Below are positions 15,443-26,271 of a stretch of 64,000 bases of DNA, one piece after another (the first letter of the stretch is position 1; every line of letters begins with the position of its first letter). This stretch comes from an uncultured Thermoplasmata archaeon (lineage in GTDB: Archaea; Thermoplasmatota; Thermoplasmata; UBA10834). The stretch lies in assembly GCA_963719945.1 (NCBI GenBank), contig CAVRDX010000004.1:192001-256000 (forward strand), given 5' to 3'. Made by a program: the position numbers and the translations under genes. A model generated the notes under the pieces. That model saw nothing but the letters and a program-made list of their open reading frames with translations. It was not told where the DNA came from and did not search any database.

Positions 15443-16147
15443 CTATGGCGTCTCGATCACTGACAGGAAATGGTAACCGTCCCTCGAGACAATCTCCTTC
15501 GAATCCAATATTATGGGGTGTGCGAGCATCGGCCCGTCCGTCACCACTGTATGATACTCTCCGTTCTCTCCTGCCGCATCTATGCCCAAGGTTTCCATCT
15601 CTCTGACGATATCAGGTGTCAGAGTCTTCCCGAGATAACTCTTATCCAATACGCCGTCCTTGACGGATACGATCATGGCCTTGAAACCCCTTTCGAAGAA
15701 CTCGGCCATCAGCTCTCGTCTTCCCGTCTTCCAGAGTGGAAGAGCCGCCTTCATCCCCATCTCCGAACTGACCCTCTCGACCCATTCCCTGTGACCTTCG
15801 AGGTCTATGTCACCGAAGACTCCATGGGTTATCCCTTGCTTCTTCAGTTCCTCCAGCGCATCTTTGAATTGCTCTTCATACCCTTCCCAGGAGGCGTTCC
15901 TGGTCATCAGTGGGATCCCCATCGCTCTGGCCTGGCTATCGATCACAGAGACGGGCAATCCATGTCCTCGCGATCTATCGCCAGTCTCGATCAACATGGT
16001 CAGAAGATTTCTCGGCGATGCTCCAAGCTCGATTGCATGGAACAATGCGAGTGCGGAGTCCTTACCTCCGCTCCAAGAACAAAAGAATGGTGTTTCGGGA
16101 ACCAGCGTCTCTACTTCACATTTTCGAGCTGGCTTATGATGTTCCAT
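15443..16147 (-). CDS. diphthine--ammonia ligase family ATP pyrophosphatase (start uncertain, possibly CTG 16105)
   Basis: SWSGGKDS, VFGDI, PLW, GENGEYHTVVTDGP. Confidence 0.88.
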   Translation of the reverse strand: MEHHKPARKCEVETLVPETPFFCSWSGGKDSALALFHAIELGASPRNLLTMLIETGDRSRGHGLPVSVIDSQARAMGIPLMTRNASWEGYEEQFKDALEELKKQGITHGVFGDIDLEGHREWVERVSSEMGMKAALPLWKTGRRELMAEFFERGFKAMIVSVKDGVLDKSYLGKTLTPDIVREMETLGIDAAGENGEYHTVVTDGPMLAHPIILDSKEIVSRDGYHFLSVIETP

Positions 16148-16365
16148 ATGAGCGTCCGCCCGTGGAGTGGTATGTTCGGATCATTGGCTAGTTCGTCGAG
16201 GATCATGATAGCGCTCGCGCTCCTGATGTCCAAAGCCTCCTCTTTGTGCGACAGTCTCTCCTTTGCTTGTGTCGCACCGCGCCGGATGTTCCTAGGGACC
16301 GAGTTGTCCTCGGCCAGCTGGTCCAACACCTCCATGATCTGTCTAAGCTTTGTTTCCATATCCAT
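16111..16365 (-). CDS. UPF0147 family protein
   Basis: DNSVPRNIRR, LDELANDPNIPLHGRTLIWNIISQLE. Confidence 0.92.
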   Translation of the reverse strand: MDMETKLRQIMEVLDQLAEDNSVPRNIRRGATQAKERLSHKEEALDIRSASAIMILDELANDPNIPLHGRTLIWNIISQLENVK

Positions 16366-16411
16366 AACGCTCACCTTCGAAAGTGATTTTTAATGAGGAA
16401 AGCGGAGAAAA

Positions 16412-16756
16412 CTATTCCTTCGGCTCTTCCTCAACTTCGACCTTGATCTTGCCTCTTTCCTTGAACGTCGTGACGACCATGAAAGTCTTGGTCTCCTTCA
16501 CGCCGTTTATGTCTGCGACATTGTCGACTATGAACCTCTTGAGGGCTCCATAATTAGGGAACCTTGCTTTTGCGAAGATATCCGTGTCCCCGGTGACCAG
16601 GAACACATCCTCGATATGGTCGTAGGATGCGATCTTCTCCGCGACCTCGTCGGACCCCTTCGTATCAATCTTGAAGCTGATTAGGGCCGTGACTTGTTCC
16701 TCACCATAGTACGTCGAGATGATCTCCTCGTACTCCTTCTTGTCCTTATCTTCCAT
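16412..16756 (-). CDS. Lrp/AsnC ligand-binding (RAM) domain protein lacking the HTH
   Basis: VFLVTGDTDIFAKARF, INGVKETKTFMV; no N-terminal HTH. Confidence 0.88.
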   Translation of the reverse strand: MEDKDKKEYEEIISTYYGEEQVTALISFKIDTKGSDEVAEKIASYDHIEDVFLVTGDTDIFAKARFPNYGALKRFIVDNVADINGVKETKTFMVVTTFKERGKIKVEVEEEPKE

Positions 16757-16894
16757 GTCTTCGCCCCCTGATTGAGGATGCCTCTATCCGCGTCGCGCGG
16801 TTATCCAAGCTCAGGCGCCCCTAGGGTCAACAAGAGCCTTATCCTATGCATTCCCGGAAGGGACTGCTTGATAAGGTTCGGTACGAGCCCGATG

Positions 16895-17065
16895 TTACAG
16901 GCGTGCGCCTTCGAATTCTTCTTGGAGGTCTATGATCACTTGTTCAAGGATCTCCTCCAAGCTGGCGCTCCTGTACTCTCGCATTCCACCAAGGTCACTC
17001 TGAACTCTTGCAACATACGATGCGTTGCTCTTCAGAAACTCAACGTTGCACAAGGGCTCTTCCAT
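16895..17065 (-). CDS. small acidic hypothetical protein (56 aa, absent from the ORF track)
   Basis: MEEPLCNVEFLKSNASYVARVQSDLGGMREYRSASLEEILEQVIIDLQEEFEGARL; GGGGTGA RBS 6 nt upstream. Confidence 0.75.
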   Translation of the reverse strand: MEEPLCNVEFLKSNASYVARVQSDLGGMREYRSASLEEILEQVIIDLQEEFEGARL

Positions 17066-17204
17066 CCGTGTTCACCCCATCTGGCCCAGGCACCACCCGA
17101 GGCCATGGTTAGCGCGCTGGTGCGCCATATATCCTCTATTATTTAGACCTTTCTTAAATTCCTTCCGGTGACCGGACGGGCCAGAATGCCGTCTGGCACG
17201 GGTC

Positions 17205-17305: not shown

Positions 17306-17315
17306 TATTATATAT
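17306..17315 (+). promoter_or_regulatory. TATA box of the Ile-leader/ileS-like transcript
   Basis: TATTATATAT; TTATAT lies 32 nt before the uORF ATG, similar to the 30 nt spacing seen for the PAC2 gene and asnS. Confidence 0.7.
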
Positions 17316-17339: not shown

Positions 17340-17381
17340 ATGAACTCGGCAGCCAATAGCCTTATCATAATTATAGGCTGA
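17340..17381 (+). CDS. Ile-rich leader peptide MNSAANSLIIIIG (putative attenuator uORF)
   Basis: ATG AAC TCG GCA GCC AAT AGC CTT ATC ATA ATT ATA GGC TGA, 55 nt upstream of an IleRS homologue. Confidence 0.75.
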   Translation: MNSAANSLIIIIG

Positions 17382-17436
17382 TTCTTGCCCCCATTGCCGA
17401 GTTTGTATTAGAGGCCTTTTGGAGGGATTTGTTGTT

Positions 17437-20400
17437 ATGAAGAAGTACTACCGAGAACCTGCCGGCGAGACCTTCTCCGGCATAGAAGAGGAGGTTCTCT
17501 CTCTCTGGGGACAGGAGAGCATGCTGCTCAAGGTCAAGGAGCGGATGCGCGACGGTGCCCCTCTGTACTTCTGCGAAGGTCCCCCGACCGCTAAGAGCCC
17601 GCCCCATTTCGGTGACGCCCTCACGCGCGCGGTCAAGGATGCGTTCCTCAGGTTCCACATAATGAACGGTAGGCAGGTCCTGCCCTACATAGGCGGCTGG
17701 GACTGTCATGGGCTCCCAGTCGAGCTGGAGGTCGAGCGGTCTCTGGGACTGGGGAGCAAGGCCGATATCGAGCGATACGGGATCGAACCCTTCAATTCTC
17801 GATGCCGCGAGAGCGTCCTCCGCTACAAGGGAGATTGGGAGGAGATGAGCCGGAGGGTCGGCTACTGGATCGATTTCGAGAATGCCTACATGACCATGTC
17901 CAACGAGTACATCGAGAGCGTATGGTGGTCAGTCAAGCAATTGCATTCGAAGGGCTTGCTGGTAAAGGACAAGCAGGTCGTCCCTTACTGCCCAAGGTGT
18001 GGAACCACCCTGAGCACTCACGAAGTGGCATTAGGTTTCGGCGAGGTCGAGACCAGATACGTCGTCGCCCGTTTCCGGATCGACGAGCTGGATGCCAGCG
18101 CCCTGGTCTACACCGAGACGCCATGGACCCTGGTGGCGAACGCCCTGCTCGCGGTCGACGGAAACCAACGCTATGTGCTCATGGAATCATCCGGTGAGAG
18201 GTTGCTTCTCAGCGAACCTAGCTCGAAGGTATGGTTGCCTTCGTGCAAGGTGCTTCGCACCTTCTCCGGAACAGAGCTGGTCGGTCTATCTTATGTTCCA
18301 CCGTTCAATTACTCGGGACGGCCAGGCGATTCGTTCAAGATTGTTCATTCTGACGAGGTAACCAAGGAGGAAGGCACCGGGATAATGCACGTGTGCCCCG
18401 CATGCAGCTCGATAGATTTCGAGATAGCAGCGGCCGAGGGTCTCGAATTGTTCGATCCGATCGACGAGACCGCGAGTTTCACGCAGGAAATCCCCGAACT
18501 CGCCGGCAAGCTGGTCACAGACTCAAGCACTGATGTTATACGGATGCTAGAGGGCTCAGGGTCTTTGTTCAAATGGGGTCTGATGAAACGGTCATCACCA
18601 TTTTGCTGGAGGTGTCAAACCCCGCTCATCTACAAGCTAAGAGACGCCTGGCTCATAAAGGCTTCAGATGTGAAGGACGAGATGTCCAGATTGAACCAGA
18701 AGATCCGATGGGTGCCTGAGACCTTCCGGGACCTGAGGTTCGGAAACTTCATCGCGGACGCTAAGGATTGGGCAGTCAGCCGGAGTCGATACTGGGGGAC
18801 GCCGCTACCTATCTGGAGATGCACGGAGGGCCACGAATACTGTGTGGGTTCGGTCCAGGAGCTAAGGGATTCGTCCGAGTCCCCGGTTCCAGATGGATCG
18901 GACCTGCACCGTCCTTTCGTGGATGCCGTCACCCTCAGATGCCCACAATGTGGTAGGAGCATGAAGCGTGAGGAATTCGTCCTCGACTGCTGGTACGATT
19001 CCGGGTGCGCGCCATTCGCCCAATACCACTACCCGTTCGAGAACAAGGATGTGTTCGATTCACACAGGTCATTGGATTTCATATCGGAATCAGTGGAGCA
19101 GACTCGCGGATGGTTCTACACACAGCATGTGTTGAGCACCCTGCTATTCGATGCTCCAGCGTTCACTTCCGTCCTTGTGATGGGTAACGTGCTCGGTGCC
19201 GATGGGAAGAAGATGAGGAACGTGCACAAGAACACGGTTTCACCGTCCGAGGTGTTCTCGTCCGTCGGTGCGGATGCATCAAGACTCTATCTCCTTGGAA
19301 GCCCGACGTGGGAGTCTGTTCAATTCTCGGAGGAGGATGTGAGGAAGACGATGGTCGGCACGCTCAAGACGCTCCTCAATGTCTACGCATTCTACGCATC
19401 CAATGCCAACGCTTACGGTTATACTGGCCAGGAGGCTGGAACCAAGACTCACGACCTGGACACCTGGATCCTATCCCGATTGAACACGACCATCGTTGAG
19501 GCCAGGAACGGATTCGACGACCTCGAGGTCCACCGGGCAGTGAACTCGGTAAGGGAGTTCGTGGAGGATTTGAGCAACTGGTATGTTCGCAGGTCCAGGC
19601 GCAGGTTCTGGGTCGAGAGCGATCCACTCGACCGCTTCTCCGCACATTCCACGCTCCATGAATGCCTCACGATATTGTCCAGAATAATGGCTCCGATCAC
19701 ACCTTTCTTCGCGGACTGGCTCTATAGAAACCTGAAAGGGGCCAAGGGAAGCGTGCATCTCGAGGACTATCCAATCGCTAACGAGGAACATTCCAACAAA
19801 CCGCTTGAGCTGCAGATGGCCATTGTTCGGAGGGCAGTCGAAGCCGGCCGTCTGGCCCGTCAGAACGCAAACATAAAGTTGAGACAGCCGCTCGAAGAGG
19901 TAGTGATAGCCGCCAGCAATGACGATGTATGGACGCTTCGCAGATATGAGAAGATGATCTCCGAGGAGCTGAATGTCCGATCAGTGAAGTGCATCGAATC
20001 CAGGGAGAGCATGGTGGAGTATACCATATCGGCGAACCTCAGGACCCTCGGTCCGAGGTTCAAGGAAGGGGCCGAGGAGGTCTCGAAACTGCTCGAGATG
20101 GTCGATGGTAGCGAACTGGTTAGACACCTGAAGACGAAGGGAAGGCTGCGTCTGGGAGGCTACGACCTCTACGAGGAGGATGTCATCATCAGCGAGACGC
20201 AGAAATCAGGATACACCCACGCATCGATGGATGACATGCATGTCTACTTCTCGACCAAGATGAATGCGAAGCTCAAGATGGATGGCCTCGCTAGAGAAGT
20301 CATCAGACGAGTACAGCACATGCGAAAGGAGCAGGGTCTGGCTTTCGATGACCTCGTCGTCGTGGAGTATTCGGCCCATCCGGACATCGAGGCGGCCATC

Positions 20401-20529
20401 GTCGCCCATAAGTCCCGTCTGGAGACGGAAACGCATGCGAAAACCTACTCGAAGTCCACCTCGCTCCAAGATGCCAAGAAGTGGACGGTCAACAAGATGC
20501 CGCTCGAGCTTGTGGTCAGGAGACTCTGA
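17437..20529 (+). CDS. ileS: isoleucyl-tRNA synthetase homologue with degenerate catalytic motifs
   Basis: EGPPT, GWDCHGLPVE, DWAVSRSRYWGTPLPIW, QTRGWFY, DLSNWYVRRSRRRFW, GLAREVIRRVQ; but HFGD for HIGH and KMRNV for KMSKS; GGAGGG RBS before ATG 17437. Confidence 0.85.
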   Translation: MKKYYREPAGETFSGIEEEVLSLWGQESMLLKVKERMRDGAPLYFCEGPPTAKSPPHFGDALTRAVKDAFLRFHIMNGRQVLPYIGGWDCHGLPVELEVERSLGLGSKADIERYGIEPFNSRCRESVLRYKGDWEEMSRRVGYWIDFENAYMTMSNEYIESVWWSVKQLHSKGLLVKDKQVVPYCPRCGTTLSTHEVALGFGEVETRYVVARFRIDELDASALVYTETPWTLVANALLAVDGNQRYVLMESSGERLLLSEPSSKVWLPSCKVLRTFSGTELVGLSYVPPFNYSGRPGDSFKIVHSDEVTKEEGTGIMHVCPACSSIDFEIAAAEGLELFDPIDETASFTQEIPELAGKLVTDSSTDVIRMLEGSGSLFKWGLMKRSSPFCWRCQTPLIYKLRDAWLIKASDVKDEMSRLNQKIRWVPETFRDLRFGNFIADAKDWAVSRSRYWGTPLPIWRCTEGHEYCVGSVQELRDSSESPVPDGSDLHRPFVDAVTLRCPQCGRSMKREEFVLDCWYDSGCAPFAQYHYPFENKDVFDSHRSLDFISESVEQTRGWFYTQHVLSTLLFDAPAFTSVLVMGNVLGADGKKMRNVHKNTVSPSEVFSSVGADASRLYLLGSPTWESVQFSEEDVRKTMVGTLKTLLNVYAFYASNANAYGYTGQEAGTKTHDLDTWILSRLNTTIVEARNGFDDLEVHRAVNSVREFVEDLSNWYVRRSRRRFWVESDPLDRFSAHSTLHECLTILSRIMAPITPFFADWLYRNLKGAKGSVHLEDYPIANEEHSNKPLELQMAIVRRAVEAGRLARQNANIKLRQPLEEVVIAASNDDVWTLRRYEKMISEELNVRSVKCIESRESMVEYTISANLRTLGPRFKEGAEEVSKLLEMVDGSELVRHLKTKGRLRLGGYDLYEEDVIISETQKSGYTHASMDDMHVYFSTKMNAKLKMDGLAREVIRRVQHMRKEQGLAFDDLVVVEYSAHPDIEAAIVAHKSRLETETHAKTYSKSTSLQDAKKWTVNKMPLELVVRRL

Positions 20530-20998
20530 CCTTCTTCTTCGGTCCCTTGGATATCGATTTCTCCATCAGGTATGCGTGCTTCTTGGCGCCGTAATAATCC
20601 TTCACCATGGTCTTCAGGACATACCCGTGTTTGAGGTATAGGTTGATGGCTGCGGTATTCTCTATGCCGACCTCGAGGCCACTCTTCCGAACCCCTAGGA
20701 TCGCCATCCTCTTCTCGCATTCAATCAAGAGGCGCGAACCAAGCCCCTTCTCGCGTCTGCCATCCATGACTGCTACGGAAGCTATGCGTCCTTCCCCGCA
20801 CCTCTTCGAGAACATGCACATGGCCGCCCCTATGATCGCCCGTTCGTCGACAGCGACCAACGCTATGGTATCGTTCCTGACGACGAATGCGGTGACGGTC
20901 TCCTGCTCGAACCGTCTCTCATCGAAACATTCCGCCTCCAAGCGCATGATGCCTGGCAGGTCCTTCATGGTGGCGACCCTAACCTTCACAGACGGCAT
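20516..20998 (-). CDS. RimI-like GNAT N-acetyltransferase
   Basis: IASVAV..RREKGLGSRLL, LEV..ENTAAINLYLKHGY, YY. Confidence 0.88.
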   Translation of the reverse strand: MPSVKVRVATMKDLPGIMRLEAECFDERRFEQETVTAFVVRNDTIALVAVDERAIIGAAMCMFSKRCGEGRIASVAVMDGRREKGLGSRLLIECEKRMAILGVRKSGLEVGIENTAAINLYLKHGYVLKTMVKDYYGAKKHAYLMEKSISKGPKKKVRVS

Positions 20999-21071
20999 AC
21001 GACGCCGCCATGATATGTTCGTTGCGCTTCATCCGAAGGGCTTATATTCGCCATGAGACTTCAGCATCTGG

Positions 21072-22361
21072 ATGGTCCCGATAAAGAACGCCGTCTCAAA
21101 AGAAATGGTGGGCAAGAACGTCCAGGTACGTGGATGGATCTACCGCACCAGGAGCAGCGGCGGAATAGCGTTCATAGTCATGCGCGATTCGACAGGCATA
21201 GTCCAGGTTACCGTCAAGAAGGGTTCTGTCCCGGACGAGGACTTCGTCTCAGCCACCGATAGCGGTATCGAATCCTCGGCAGTAGTCGAGGGCACAGTCG
21301 CGGAGGACAAGCGCGCACCAGGTGGTTACGAGATACGCGCGAGCCGATTCATTCTAGTGGGCAAGGCTGAACCATTCCCGATCACGGAATATCAAAGCAC
21401 CGAGCTTCTTCTGGATCTGAGACACCTATGGATAAGATCCAGGGAACAGACCGCGATCATGAGGATCAAGGATTCACTTCTAAGAGGGGCACGCAACTGG
21501 TTCCATGAGAACGATTACACTGAAGTAACGCCCCCTATCATCACAGGGGTCGCTCCGGAAGATAGTACCACCCTGTTCCAGATGAAATACTTCGACAGGA
21601 TAGCATATCTATCACAGAGTGCACAGTTCTACCTGGAATCGCTCATATTCTCGTGCGACAAGGTCTGGGCTCTCACTCCATCTTTCAGGGCGGAGAAGTC
21701 GAGGACTCCCAGACATCTGGCGGAATTTTGGCACCTTGAGATGGAAGCGGCCTGGCTTACAAACGAAGAGAACATGCAGGTGCAGGAGCAGATGGTGACC
21801 GCCATGCTGCACAATGCGGCTGATGAATGTCCCAGCGAGCTCGCGATGTTCAAGCGTGACCCCGCAGCCCTGAAGAAGATCGTGCCACCGTTCGAAAGAA
21901 TGCCCTATGGAGAGGCTATGCAGTACCTGCAGGGCAAAGGGTTCGACATGTCATGGGGAGACGACCTAGGCGCAGTCGAGGAGCGCGAGCTTACAAAGGA
22001 CCGCACCATCCCGATGTTCGTGGTGAACTATCCGAAGGAGCTCAAGCCGTTCTACATGAAGGAGAACCCGGACGACCCGCGCACATACAAGAATAGCGAC
22101 TTGCTGGCGCCGGAAGGCTTCGGCGAGATAATCGGCGGCAGCGAGAGGGAGACGGACAACGCACTCATTCTCGAGAGACTGCGCGAGAAGGGCGAGCCCT
22201 TGGAGAACTACAGTTGGTATCTGGATCTCAGAAGGTATGGGTCGGTCCCACACTCTGGGTTCGGTCTGGGAACGGAGAGGATCGTGACATGGATATGCGG
22301 TCTGGACCATATCCGCGACGCGATACCATTCCCGCGCACGGTCTCTAGGGTGTTCCCCTAG
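21072..22361 (+). CDS. asnS: asparaginyl-tRNA synthetase
   Basis: OB-fold RGWIYRTRSSG, YLSQSAQFYLE, FRAEKSRTPRHLAEFW, GSVPHSGFGLGTER. Confidence 0.95.
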   Translation: MVPIKNAVSKEMVGKNVQVRGWIYRTRSSGGIAFIVMRDSTGIVQVTVKKGSVPDEDFVSATDSGIESSAVVEGTVAEDKRAPGGYEIRASRFILVGKAEPFPITEYQSTELLLDLRHLWIRSREQTAIMRIKDSLLRGARNWFHENDYTEVTPPIITGVAPEDSTTLFQMKYFDRIAYLSQSAQFYLESLIFSCDKVWALTPSFRAEKSRTPRHLAEFWHLEMEAAWLTNEENMQVQEQMVTAMLHNAADECPSELAMFKRDPAALKKIVPPFERMPYGEAMQYLQGKGFDMSWGDDLGAVEERELTKDRTIPMFVVNYPKELKPFYMKENPDDPRTYKNSDLLAPEGFGEIIGGSERETDNALILERLREKGEPLENYSWYLDLRRYGSVPHSGFGLGTERIVTWICGLDHIRDAIPFPRTVSRVFP

Positions 22362-25701: not shown

Positions 25702-26271
25702 TCAACGATACTGGTCGATCAGCTTCATCATATCCTTCTCGAGGCCGACGCTCATGGCTGGAGCCTCGATCACTTCCACGTTCCTCTCAAGAAGTGCCAG
25801 CTCCTTCTCGCTGAAGGCGTCTGGGCTTATCGGTATCAGGACCACTGACTTGCTCTGCATGACCTGCTCGTTTATGTGCTCGGCGAACCTGAGCACCTGC
25901 TGGAATCCGTTGTTGATCACCAGGTACTCGAGCCCGTCGATGATGACGACGCACTTCTCGTACCTCTCGATGAACGAGGAGATCATGGTCGCGAGCGTGC
26001 CTATGCTGGTCGGGTTGTGATGGTCCTTTCCCGGGGTGTGGCTCAACCACAGGATGCGCGTATCGCCCAGATCGAAAGCCTCTTTGACCTTCTCAGGGTA
26101 CTGACGGGTGACGCATAATCCCGGAATGCTGTCAGAAATCGCGTTCTCAAACAGTTTGTAGGATAGGAAAGGCTTCCGCTCCCTGACTACGTAACACATT
26201 CCCGCTTCGGGACGGATCAGCTCCATCTGGTTCGAGATCTTCTCTTCCGAACCGATGTCCTTATCCTCCAC
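25702..26271 (-). CDS. stand-alone DUF835 domain protein
   Basis: GLCVTRQYP, ILWLS, VVIIDGLEYLVINNGF, ELALLER. Confidence 0.88.
   Translation of the reverse strand: MEDKDIGSEEKISNQMELIRPEAGMCYVVRERKPFLSYKLFENAISDSIPGLCVTRQYPEKVKEAFDLGDTRILWLSHTPGKDHHNPTSIGTLATMISSFIERYEKCVVIIDGLEYLVINNGFQQVLRFAEHINEQVMQSKSVVLIPISPDAFSEKELALLERNVEVIEAPAMSVGLEKDMMKLIDQYR

Follow-up and report, generated by a model that had tools for sequence, protein, structure and literature searches.

The window analyzed here, a stretch of 64,000 nucleotides, harbors on its plus strand a gene for a homolog of isoleucyl-tRNA synthetase (IleRS), referred to as pseudo-IleRS2, and upstream of it a short open reading frame (ORF) with a run of Ile codons (Table 1). 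An initial annotation had described an uninterrupted ORF of about 1030 amino acids (aa) with all IleRS domains. The frame is indeed open across 1030 aa, a Pfam scan detected all IleRS domains, and the motifs quoted in that annotation (HFGD, KMRNV, YTETPWT, EQTRGWF and a second CP1 motif) were found in place. With TIGR00392 the protein scored 746.9 bits, above the cut-off of 621.4, and annotation pipelines therefore call it an IleRS; in practice, pseudo-IleRS2 genes pass this cut-off and are annotated as active enzymes. For the mupirocin-resistance synthetases MupA/MupB the score was 720-724 bits, below the NCBIfam cut-off of 1900. The best solved relative is IleRS2 of P. megaterium, and the AlphaFold model of the window protein (predicted local distance difference test score 91, with the KMSKS-loop block at 77 among the lowest) matched its structure (PDB 8c8v) with a template modeling score of 0.93 at 36% identity. 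The protein falls in the HUP-2 clade, and its C-terminus is of type 2, with ARD2, INS and ARD3 and no zinc-binding domain. By its predicted, normal IleRS2 fold and by descent the protein is thus of the IleRS2 type, and both signature tests for an active enzyme were negative. The host is a member of the Thermoplasmata, probably of Candidatus (Ca.) Gimiplasmatales, judging by the labels on close homologs (Thermoplasmata, RBG_16_62_10, RBG_19FT_COMBO_56_21); the order UBA10834 includes metagenome-assembled genomes of the latter two names (10.1101/2020.03.09.984617) and is Ca. Gimiplasmatales by another name (PMC11264602).

Catalytic and editing motifs were compared between 115 sequences of the clade around the window protein (itself and 114 further clusters from a protein search) and 120 canonical IleRS2 relatives. 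Sites that were at least 95% invariant in the canonical set were taken as canonical-invariant (271 sites), of which 189 were kept at 90% or more in the clade and 37 fell below 50%. The losses cluster in two places, the KMSKS loop and the editing domain. Both HIGH and KMSKS are regarded as indispensable for binding ATP and for stabilizing the transition state (PMC10485003). The sequence KMSK[ST] was present in 118 of the 120 canonical proteins and in none of the 115 clade members, and pairwise identity in the loop was 0.31-0.35 in the clade versus 0.82-0.83 in the canonical set. At the HIGH position, HFGD of the window protein conforms to neither HXGH nor GXHH and differs from the known swapped GXHH variant, in which two His remain; across the clade the first His is kept in 86% and the last in 70% of sequences (100% in the canonical relatives). 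The KMSKS loop is nearly unconstrained in the clade, with HIGH and the editing site partly relaxed. HFGD and KMRNV are identical in three genomes at 92-93% identity, and thus do not reflect chance or a sequencing effect.

A canonical ileS had been expected elsewhere in the genome and was found at G000:C1:497616-501734 (-). Its 1372-aa product is 33% identical to the window protein and carries HIGT, GYDMHG, WTTTPWT, an intact second editing motif, DQTRGWF and AMSKS, with two helix-hairpin-helix (HhH) modules and then DUF835 at the C-terminus. In the terms of PMC13752280 the partner reads as IleRS-A and the window protein as IleRS2, and the two lie on opposite sides of a tree that was built without a characterized IleRS-A. 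Judged by its motifs, this IleRS-A-HhH-DUF835 fusion does the charging of tRNA-Ile. Intact IleRS-A was retrieved from 20 other genomes of the family and was always present where the assembly allows a check. Genome G004 was considered as a case without IleRS-A and rejected, as the contig end lies some 100 nt upstream of the DUF835 tail (an assembly gap).

The initial annotation had further suggested control by Ile codons, and a leader ORF with Ile codons is indeed present. It was found in all 30 loci that have upstream DNA, at the same distance and with 2-4 Ile codons, and varies by free synonymous change and by whole-codon changes in length. In the window genome an Ile-run ORF of this kind precedes only 1 of 1308 long ORFs. 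The TATA-like box recurs with similar spacing in relatives, a spacing that would be expected for a leaderless or near-leaderless archaeal transcript. A helix between leader codons 2-4 and a segment past the leader stop was the sole helix kept by RNAalifold and shows compensatory change at three pairs, a covariation for which the relatedness of the loci inflates the shuffle control. The same leader design, with other paired sequences, stands ahead of working IleRS2 in families f9, f16, f18 and f21, and ahead of no IleRS-A in the families examined. Because the design precedes working IleRS2 elsewhere, the leader is probably an old autoregulatory leader of ileS2 that was retained by the pseudo-enzyme. 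An Rfam search gave no real match to the leader, and no terminator-like pattern was found on the plus strand. Pairing of the post-stop segment as an anti-anti-Shine-Dalgarno element was dropped, since folding with a stalled ribosome failed to open the Shine-Dalgarno site. Another short ORF of the genome (G000:C3 near 118037, +), which closes with three Phe codons and one Tyr codon, precedes a long ORF and is a possible aromatic-amino-acid leader.

Table 1. Features at the pseudo-IleRS2 locus (positions in the window; residue numbers of the window protein)
Feature	Position	Strand	Remarks
Diphthamide-synthase-family gene	15443..16147	-	
Stand-alone Lrp/AsnC ligand-binding domain gene	16412..16756	-	no DNA-binding domain
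56-aa ORF	16895..17065	-	unannotated
TATA-like box	17306..17314	+	about 25 nt ahead of the leader ATG
Leader ORF	17340..17381	+	13 codons; four consecutive Ile codons ATC ATA ATT ATA
5' arm of conserved leader helix	17343..17351	+	leader codons 2-4
3' arm of conserved leader helix	17395..17403	+	about 14 nt past the leader stop
Shine-Dalgarno GGAGG of the main gene	17421..17425	+	within a weaker predicted hairpin
Pseudo-IleRS2 gene	17437..20529	+	1030-aa open frame; Pfam, TIGR00392, alignment, AlphaFold and structure match
HIGH position, reads HFGD	17605..17616	+	residues 57-60; last His gone
GWDCHG amino-acid pocket motif	17695..17712	+	intact; W88, D89 and H91 at 100% in the clade
CP1 editing domain	18046..18606	+	residues 204-390; relaxed in the clade
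YTETPWT	18109..18129	+	
Second CP1 motif	18373..18417	+	
EQTRGWF	19096..19116	+	
KMSKS position, reads KMRNV	19210..19224	+	residues 592-596; catalytic second Lys replaced by Asn
Span of eight anticodon-reading residues	19378..20340	+	mapped from P. megaterium IleRS2 (PMC13752280)
ARD2 plus INS	19867..20271	+	residues 811-945; conserved above working IleRS2 at matched divergence
RimI-like GNAT gene	20516..20998	-	convergent with pseudo-IleRS2
asnS	21072..22361	+	

In contrast to the ATP-handling loop, the parts that read tRNA are well preserved. Eight anticodon-reading residues known from mutagenesis or structure in P. megaterium IleRS2 (PMC13752280) were all kept in the window protein (N648, F652, S713, R721, Q960, R963, K964 and L968) and in 96-100% of the clade. 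At matched core divergence, residues 811-925, comprising ARD2 and INS, showed an identity of 0.61-0.66 in the clade versus 0.31-0.39 in working IleRS2. For the first 40 residues of the N-terminus the values were 0.55 and 0.38. INS of IleRS2 raises tRNA affinity and is dispensable for catalysis (PMC13752280). Together with the loop identities this indicates that constraint was lost at the ATP loop and gained where IleRS2 raises its tRNA affinity.

The window protein had been proposed to be kept under selection, and the ratio of nonsynonymous to synonymous substitution rates (dN/dS) of pseudo-IleRS2 was 0.076-0.086 between the window genome and three close relatives. For the seven closest pairs it was 0.08-0.13, compared with 0.04-0.08 for IleRS-A of the same pairs; values were obtained by the Nei-Gojobori method and rise to 0.2-0.35 in more distant pairs, where synonymous sites become saturated. 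Pseudo-IleRS2 is thus under purifying selection despite its substituted catalytic residues. It was present in all 37 family genomes searched, at 57-100% identity; none of the matches contains an internal stop, and a few are split at contig ends. One copy, at G019:C1:584601-587686, lies in two overlapping frames with a break at residue 689. That copy, and the evolution of pseudo-IleRS2 about 1.7 times faster than IleRS-A of the same genomes, are what a decaying relic without function would have in its favor; this reading, which has almost no probability left, is already refuted by the family-wide presence, the dN/dS of about 0.1 and the intact leader, and the losses are confined to two functional sites. 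Of the refuting conditions named in the initial annotation, the two open to examination here (a single ileS in the genome, and a dN/dS near 1) both turned out in favor of its reading of a catalytically impaired or repurposed paralog, which is thus supported; its suggestion of an inhibitor sink found no support.

In the tree, built by a quick method with SH-aLRT as the only support measure, the clade holds together as one group (support 100) that branches by a long stem within Thermoplasmata IleRS2. A recent duplication was rejected, as in the tree IleRS-A and IleRS2 make up an old pair and the window protein is its IleRS2. IleRS-A was the sole type found in 16 other families, and the other family of the order (with 3 genomes that are 86-89% complete) likewise has IleRS-A only. 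Retention of a dead IleRS2 is therefore special to this family among those searched.

The pocket for Ile and ribose (GPP, GWDxHG, W519, E551, DQTRGWF) is kept at 93-100% in the clade, and D89, W519, E551, Q555, R449 and R451, which handle Ile, ribose and the acceptor end, at 100%. The change of DQTRGWF to EQTRGWF is nearly private to the window sequence and not a feature of the clade (D554 is Asp in 93%). As the losses fall only on ATP-handling residues, the protein might be conceived as an ATP-independent, Ile-tRNA-dependent transferase, similar to SbzA or cyclodipeptide synthases, which moves Ile to another acceptor. SbzA, an IleRS homolog of a Streptomyces antibiotic pathway that transfers Ile from Ile-tRNA, is the sole IleRS paralog with another function in the review PMC9437257. 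We regard a transferase as highly improbable, since there is no such biosynthetic cluster here, the conserved neighbors being the Lrp domain, the 56-aa ORF, the opposite-strand GNAT and asnS, and since an enzyme that consumes Ile-tRNA would not be expected to be induced when Ile-tRNA is scarce.

The editing domain lost 16 of its 46 canonical-invariant sites, compared with 17 of 218 elsewhere (Fisher p 8e-6). The editing motifs had been called degenerate, which holds for the equivalent of E. coli T242; by motif position, those of T241, T243, T246, H333 and D342 are kept in the window protein. T241 and D342 are named as hydrolytic editing residues of E. coli IleRS (PMC9023258); 86% of clade sequences retain the T241 equivalent Thr226 and 98% the D342 equivalent Asp327. 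Thr231 (T246) and His318 (H333), which serve solely to exclude Ile, fall to 44% and 17%. This pattern, together with the presence of all four residues in the window protein, could point to a trans-editing deacylase that clears Val- or norvalyl-tRNA-Ile, an activity expected to rise when Ile is scarce and thus fitting induction on Ile shortage. Nevertheless, such a role appears quite unlikely. Editing is the most relaxed large domain, and the T242 equivalent is kept in only 8% of the clade. The same Asp also persists in fully degenerate IleRS-A copies, the editing site of the partner IleRS-A is intact, and LeuRS2 of Natrialba magadii retains its editing Asp but does not edit (PMC4005665).

The relation between the two copies was analyzed in 45 two-copy genomes of the class. 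In 15 of them, all of the window family, an intact IleRS-A accompanied a degenerate IleRS2. The roles were reversed in 25, with an intact IleRS2 and an IleRS-A without KMSKS motif (nine families: f9, f10, f11, f12, f14, f16, f24, f28 and f32). Five were intermediate (f21, f22), and none had two fully canonical copies. One intact and one degenerate copy were thus found in 40 of the 45; as the genomes are related and were chosen because they hold two copies, these counts describe a pattern and are not a statistic. The INS segment is recognizable even in dead and truncated IleRS-A copies and is missing in a copy without tail (genome G043). In the IleRS-A-HhH-DUF835 fusion (L001:5617-9735 (-), residues ~874-937) it is 94% identical within the family. 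The 1.78-Mb window genome encodes 14 DUF835 proteins, one of them at G000:C4:217783-218160 (about 25783-26160 of the window). These features (INS unusually conserved in both proteins, the many DUF835 proteins and the live/dead pairing) would suit a role as regulatory subunit, in which the protein attaches to the IleRS-A-DUF835 fusion or to a KaiC-like partner so as to tune its signaling, with tRNA binding being secondary. We consider this very unlikely: the two genes are unlinked, and the INS of IleRS-A is equally recognizable in families without IleRS2 and hence independent of the window protein. A complex prediction for residues 636-1030 of the window protein with the IleRS-A tail 829-1372 gave a score of 0.00, which counts neither way.

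Several unusual copies were observed among the other genomes. Locus L261 (G051:C1:807500-814500) encodes a 1017-aa IleRS-A remnant in which the catalytic half is gone and INS, ARD3 and DUF835 are kept. The IleRS of loci L258-L260 (f21) is distant, has 970 aa and carries the motifs GVHH and MHRS; its gene follows a leader with five Ile codons, and a partly eroded IleRS-A accompanies it. In f9 (L046, L250), two degenerate IleRS-A frames run to 2335 and 2921 aa and have long tails. Genome G048 contains a 1438-aa ValRS-like frame (L163/L173, C16) and a strongly eroded IleRS-A-like frame of 1410 aa with a weak DUF835-like tail (L271, C3).

We favor, with somewhat more confidence than doubt, the interpretation that the window protein is a non-charging, starvation-induced holder of tRNA-Ile. 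Upon Ile-tRNA shortage, a ribosome would pause on the Ile codons of the leader and block the leader helix, and expression would rise. The protein would bind tRNA-Ile through its intact anticodon pockets and the strongly conserved D-loop contact of INS, with the tRNA 3' end, Ile or an adenosine sitting in the intact pocket. With the KMSKS loop gone, activation of Ile would be poor or nil, and the protein may therefore hold uncharged tRNA-Ile, shield it from mischarging or decay, and release it or pass it to IleRS-A once Ile returns. Alternatively, it may report the state of tRNA-Ile to a partner via surfaces of ARD2/INS and of the N-terminus that have become conserved in the clade. Weak or absent charging is inferred from motif loss, tRNA-Ile binding from the retained residues, and induction by Ile-tRNA shortage from the conserved leader.

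Several observations weigh against a non-charging holder. For a leader that would sense Ile starvation, the simplest explanation is that the downstream product makes Ile-tRNA, and when the RNA was folded with a stalled-ribosome block the Shine-Dalgarno site stayed closed. HIGH is still largely present in the clade, and 25 of the 115 clade sequences combine HxGH with a basic residue at the catalytic Lys (loops such as KITR and KITK). The extra conservation of ARD2/INS could serve a protein partner rather than tRNA. Finally, the 16 families with IleRS-A only imply that the function is not generally needed.

A rival reading is a backup synthetase, slow yet genuine, that Ile shortage induces and that works without the KMSKS lysine. 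The leader is the same as ahead of working IleRS2 in other families, and the two halves of the catalytic fold match canonical proteins in their degree of conservation (identities of 0.72 and 0.76 versus 0.71 and 0.74). About half of the clade has Arg or Lys at the catalytic position, and a 97% complete genome (G238, family f27) has a single detectable IleRS (L268), which carries Arg there (MHRH at the KMSKS position). Eukaryotic TyrRS also lacks the second KMSKS Lys, a point that our literature search did not confirm. Moreover, AMSAS mutants of LeuRS retain some activity (10.1101/2023.04.26.538376). Still, we judge a backup enzyme to be unlikely. The near-motif state flips at least 10 times on the tree, differs between near-identical relatives and occurs in none of the 18 sequences around the window protein; in all 18, which make up its genus, the motifs are lost or damaged, and several lack any basic residue in the loop. 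Relaxation extends to the editing site, and intact IleRS-A was there in every genome that could be checked.

Building on the holder interpretation, we tentatively suggest, with more doubt than conviction, that Thermoplasmata have a system of two IleRS with divided work: one charges, and the other is retained for a task on tRNA-Ile that involves no catalysis, either role being open to either copy. In the window family the non-catalytic copy would take the form of an Ile-starvation-induced tRNA-Ile sensor or holder under a ribosome-read leader, an archaeal starvation module made from a dead synthetase. Why cells keep full-length, non-charging synthetases such as LeuRS2 and LeuRS-I is an open question. 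The present case offers a large natural series (115 sequence clusters) with an active partner to match, its mirror image in other families, and a leader that would name the inducing condition, Ile-tRNA shortage, and it therefore makes this question directly testable.

Compared with IleRS2 of P. megaterium (PDB 8c8v; PMC10485003, PMC13752280), the window protein shares the fold, ARD1-3 with INS, the Ile pocket and the anticodon-reading residues, whereas its clade differs in the clade-wide loss of KMSKS, the relaxed editing domain and the more conserved ARD2/INS. Full-length archaeal pseudo-synthetases are known for LeuRS (PMC9437257, PMC4005665). LeuRS2 of Halobacteria (Natrialba magadii; PMC4005665) is likewise a second full-length class Ia copy that keeps its editing Asp beside an active partner in the same cell; a KMSKS Lys is replaced by Ser, low activity was measured and tRNA affinity was retained. 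It differs in amino acid and lineage and in that its activity was measured, whereas here a loss of activity is inferred from the motifs; neither a cognate-codon leader nor a reciprocal live/dead pattern is reported in the accessible text of PMC4005665. LeuRS-I of Sulfolobaceae (Weitzel 2020, as summarized in PMC9437257) is a full-length duplicate that binds tRNA, does not aminoacylate and matters for growth. LeuRS-I still forms adenylate and has a disrupted CP1 and a divergent C-terminus, whereas in the window protein the ATP loop is lost and the C-terminus is best kept. The window protein would thus work like LeuRS2 or LeuRS-I and descend from IleRS2. No full-length pseudo-synthetase of the IleRS kind was found in the literature searched, which omits most subscription papers, and the accessible part of a 2026 IleRS phylogeny paper mentions neither Thermoplasmata, DUF835 nor inactive copies.

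Among systems that have been tested, the leaderless polycysteine attenuator of mycobacteria (10.1101/834739) comes closest to the leader. It shares with the present leader, as do classical amino-acid leader peptides, a short 5' ORF that has a run of cognate codons and pairs with downstream RNA ahead of a ribosome-binding site. The archaeal host, the Ile codons and the pseudo-enzyme target set the leader described here apart. No published archaeal leader-peptide attenuator, that is, a ribosome-read amino-acid leader, was found in the literature searched; the present case points to such leaders in archaea.

Conservation of the neighboring genes in the family was determined by tblastn. The 56-aa ORF is 88-100% identical across the family, matches no Pfam family and is present in 198 of 201 Thermoplasmata genomes, with its Atlas clusters being labeled 'hypothetical'. 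It looks like an essential small protein of the class, and was rejected as a family-specific partner of pseudo-IleRS2 because of this class-wide occurrence. The plus-strand ORFs at 15470-16393, 16772-17146 and 20607-21056 were rejected as genes, as they gave no family hits and are shadows of minus-strand genes. The Lrp/AsnC-domain gene is 77-98% identical and adjoins pseudo-IleRS2 in nearly all family loci. Stand-alone Lrp/AsnC ligand-binding domain proteins can bind Ile. The RimI-like GNAT gene and asnS are both syntenic across the family.

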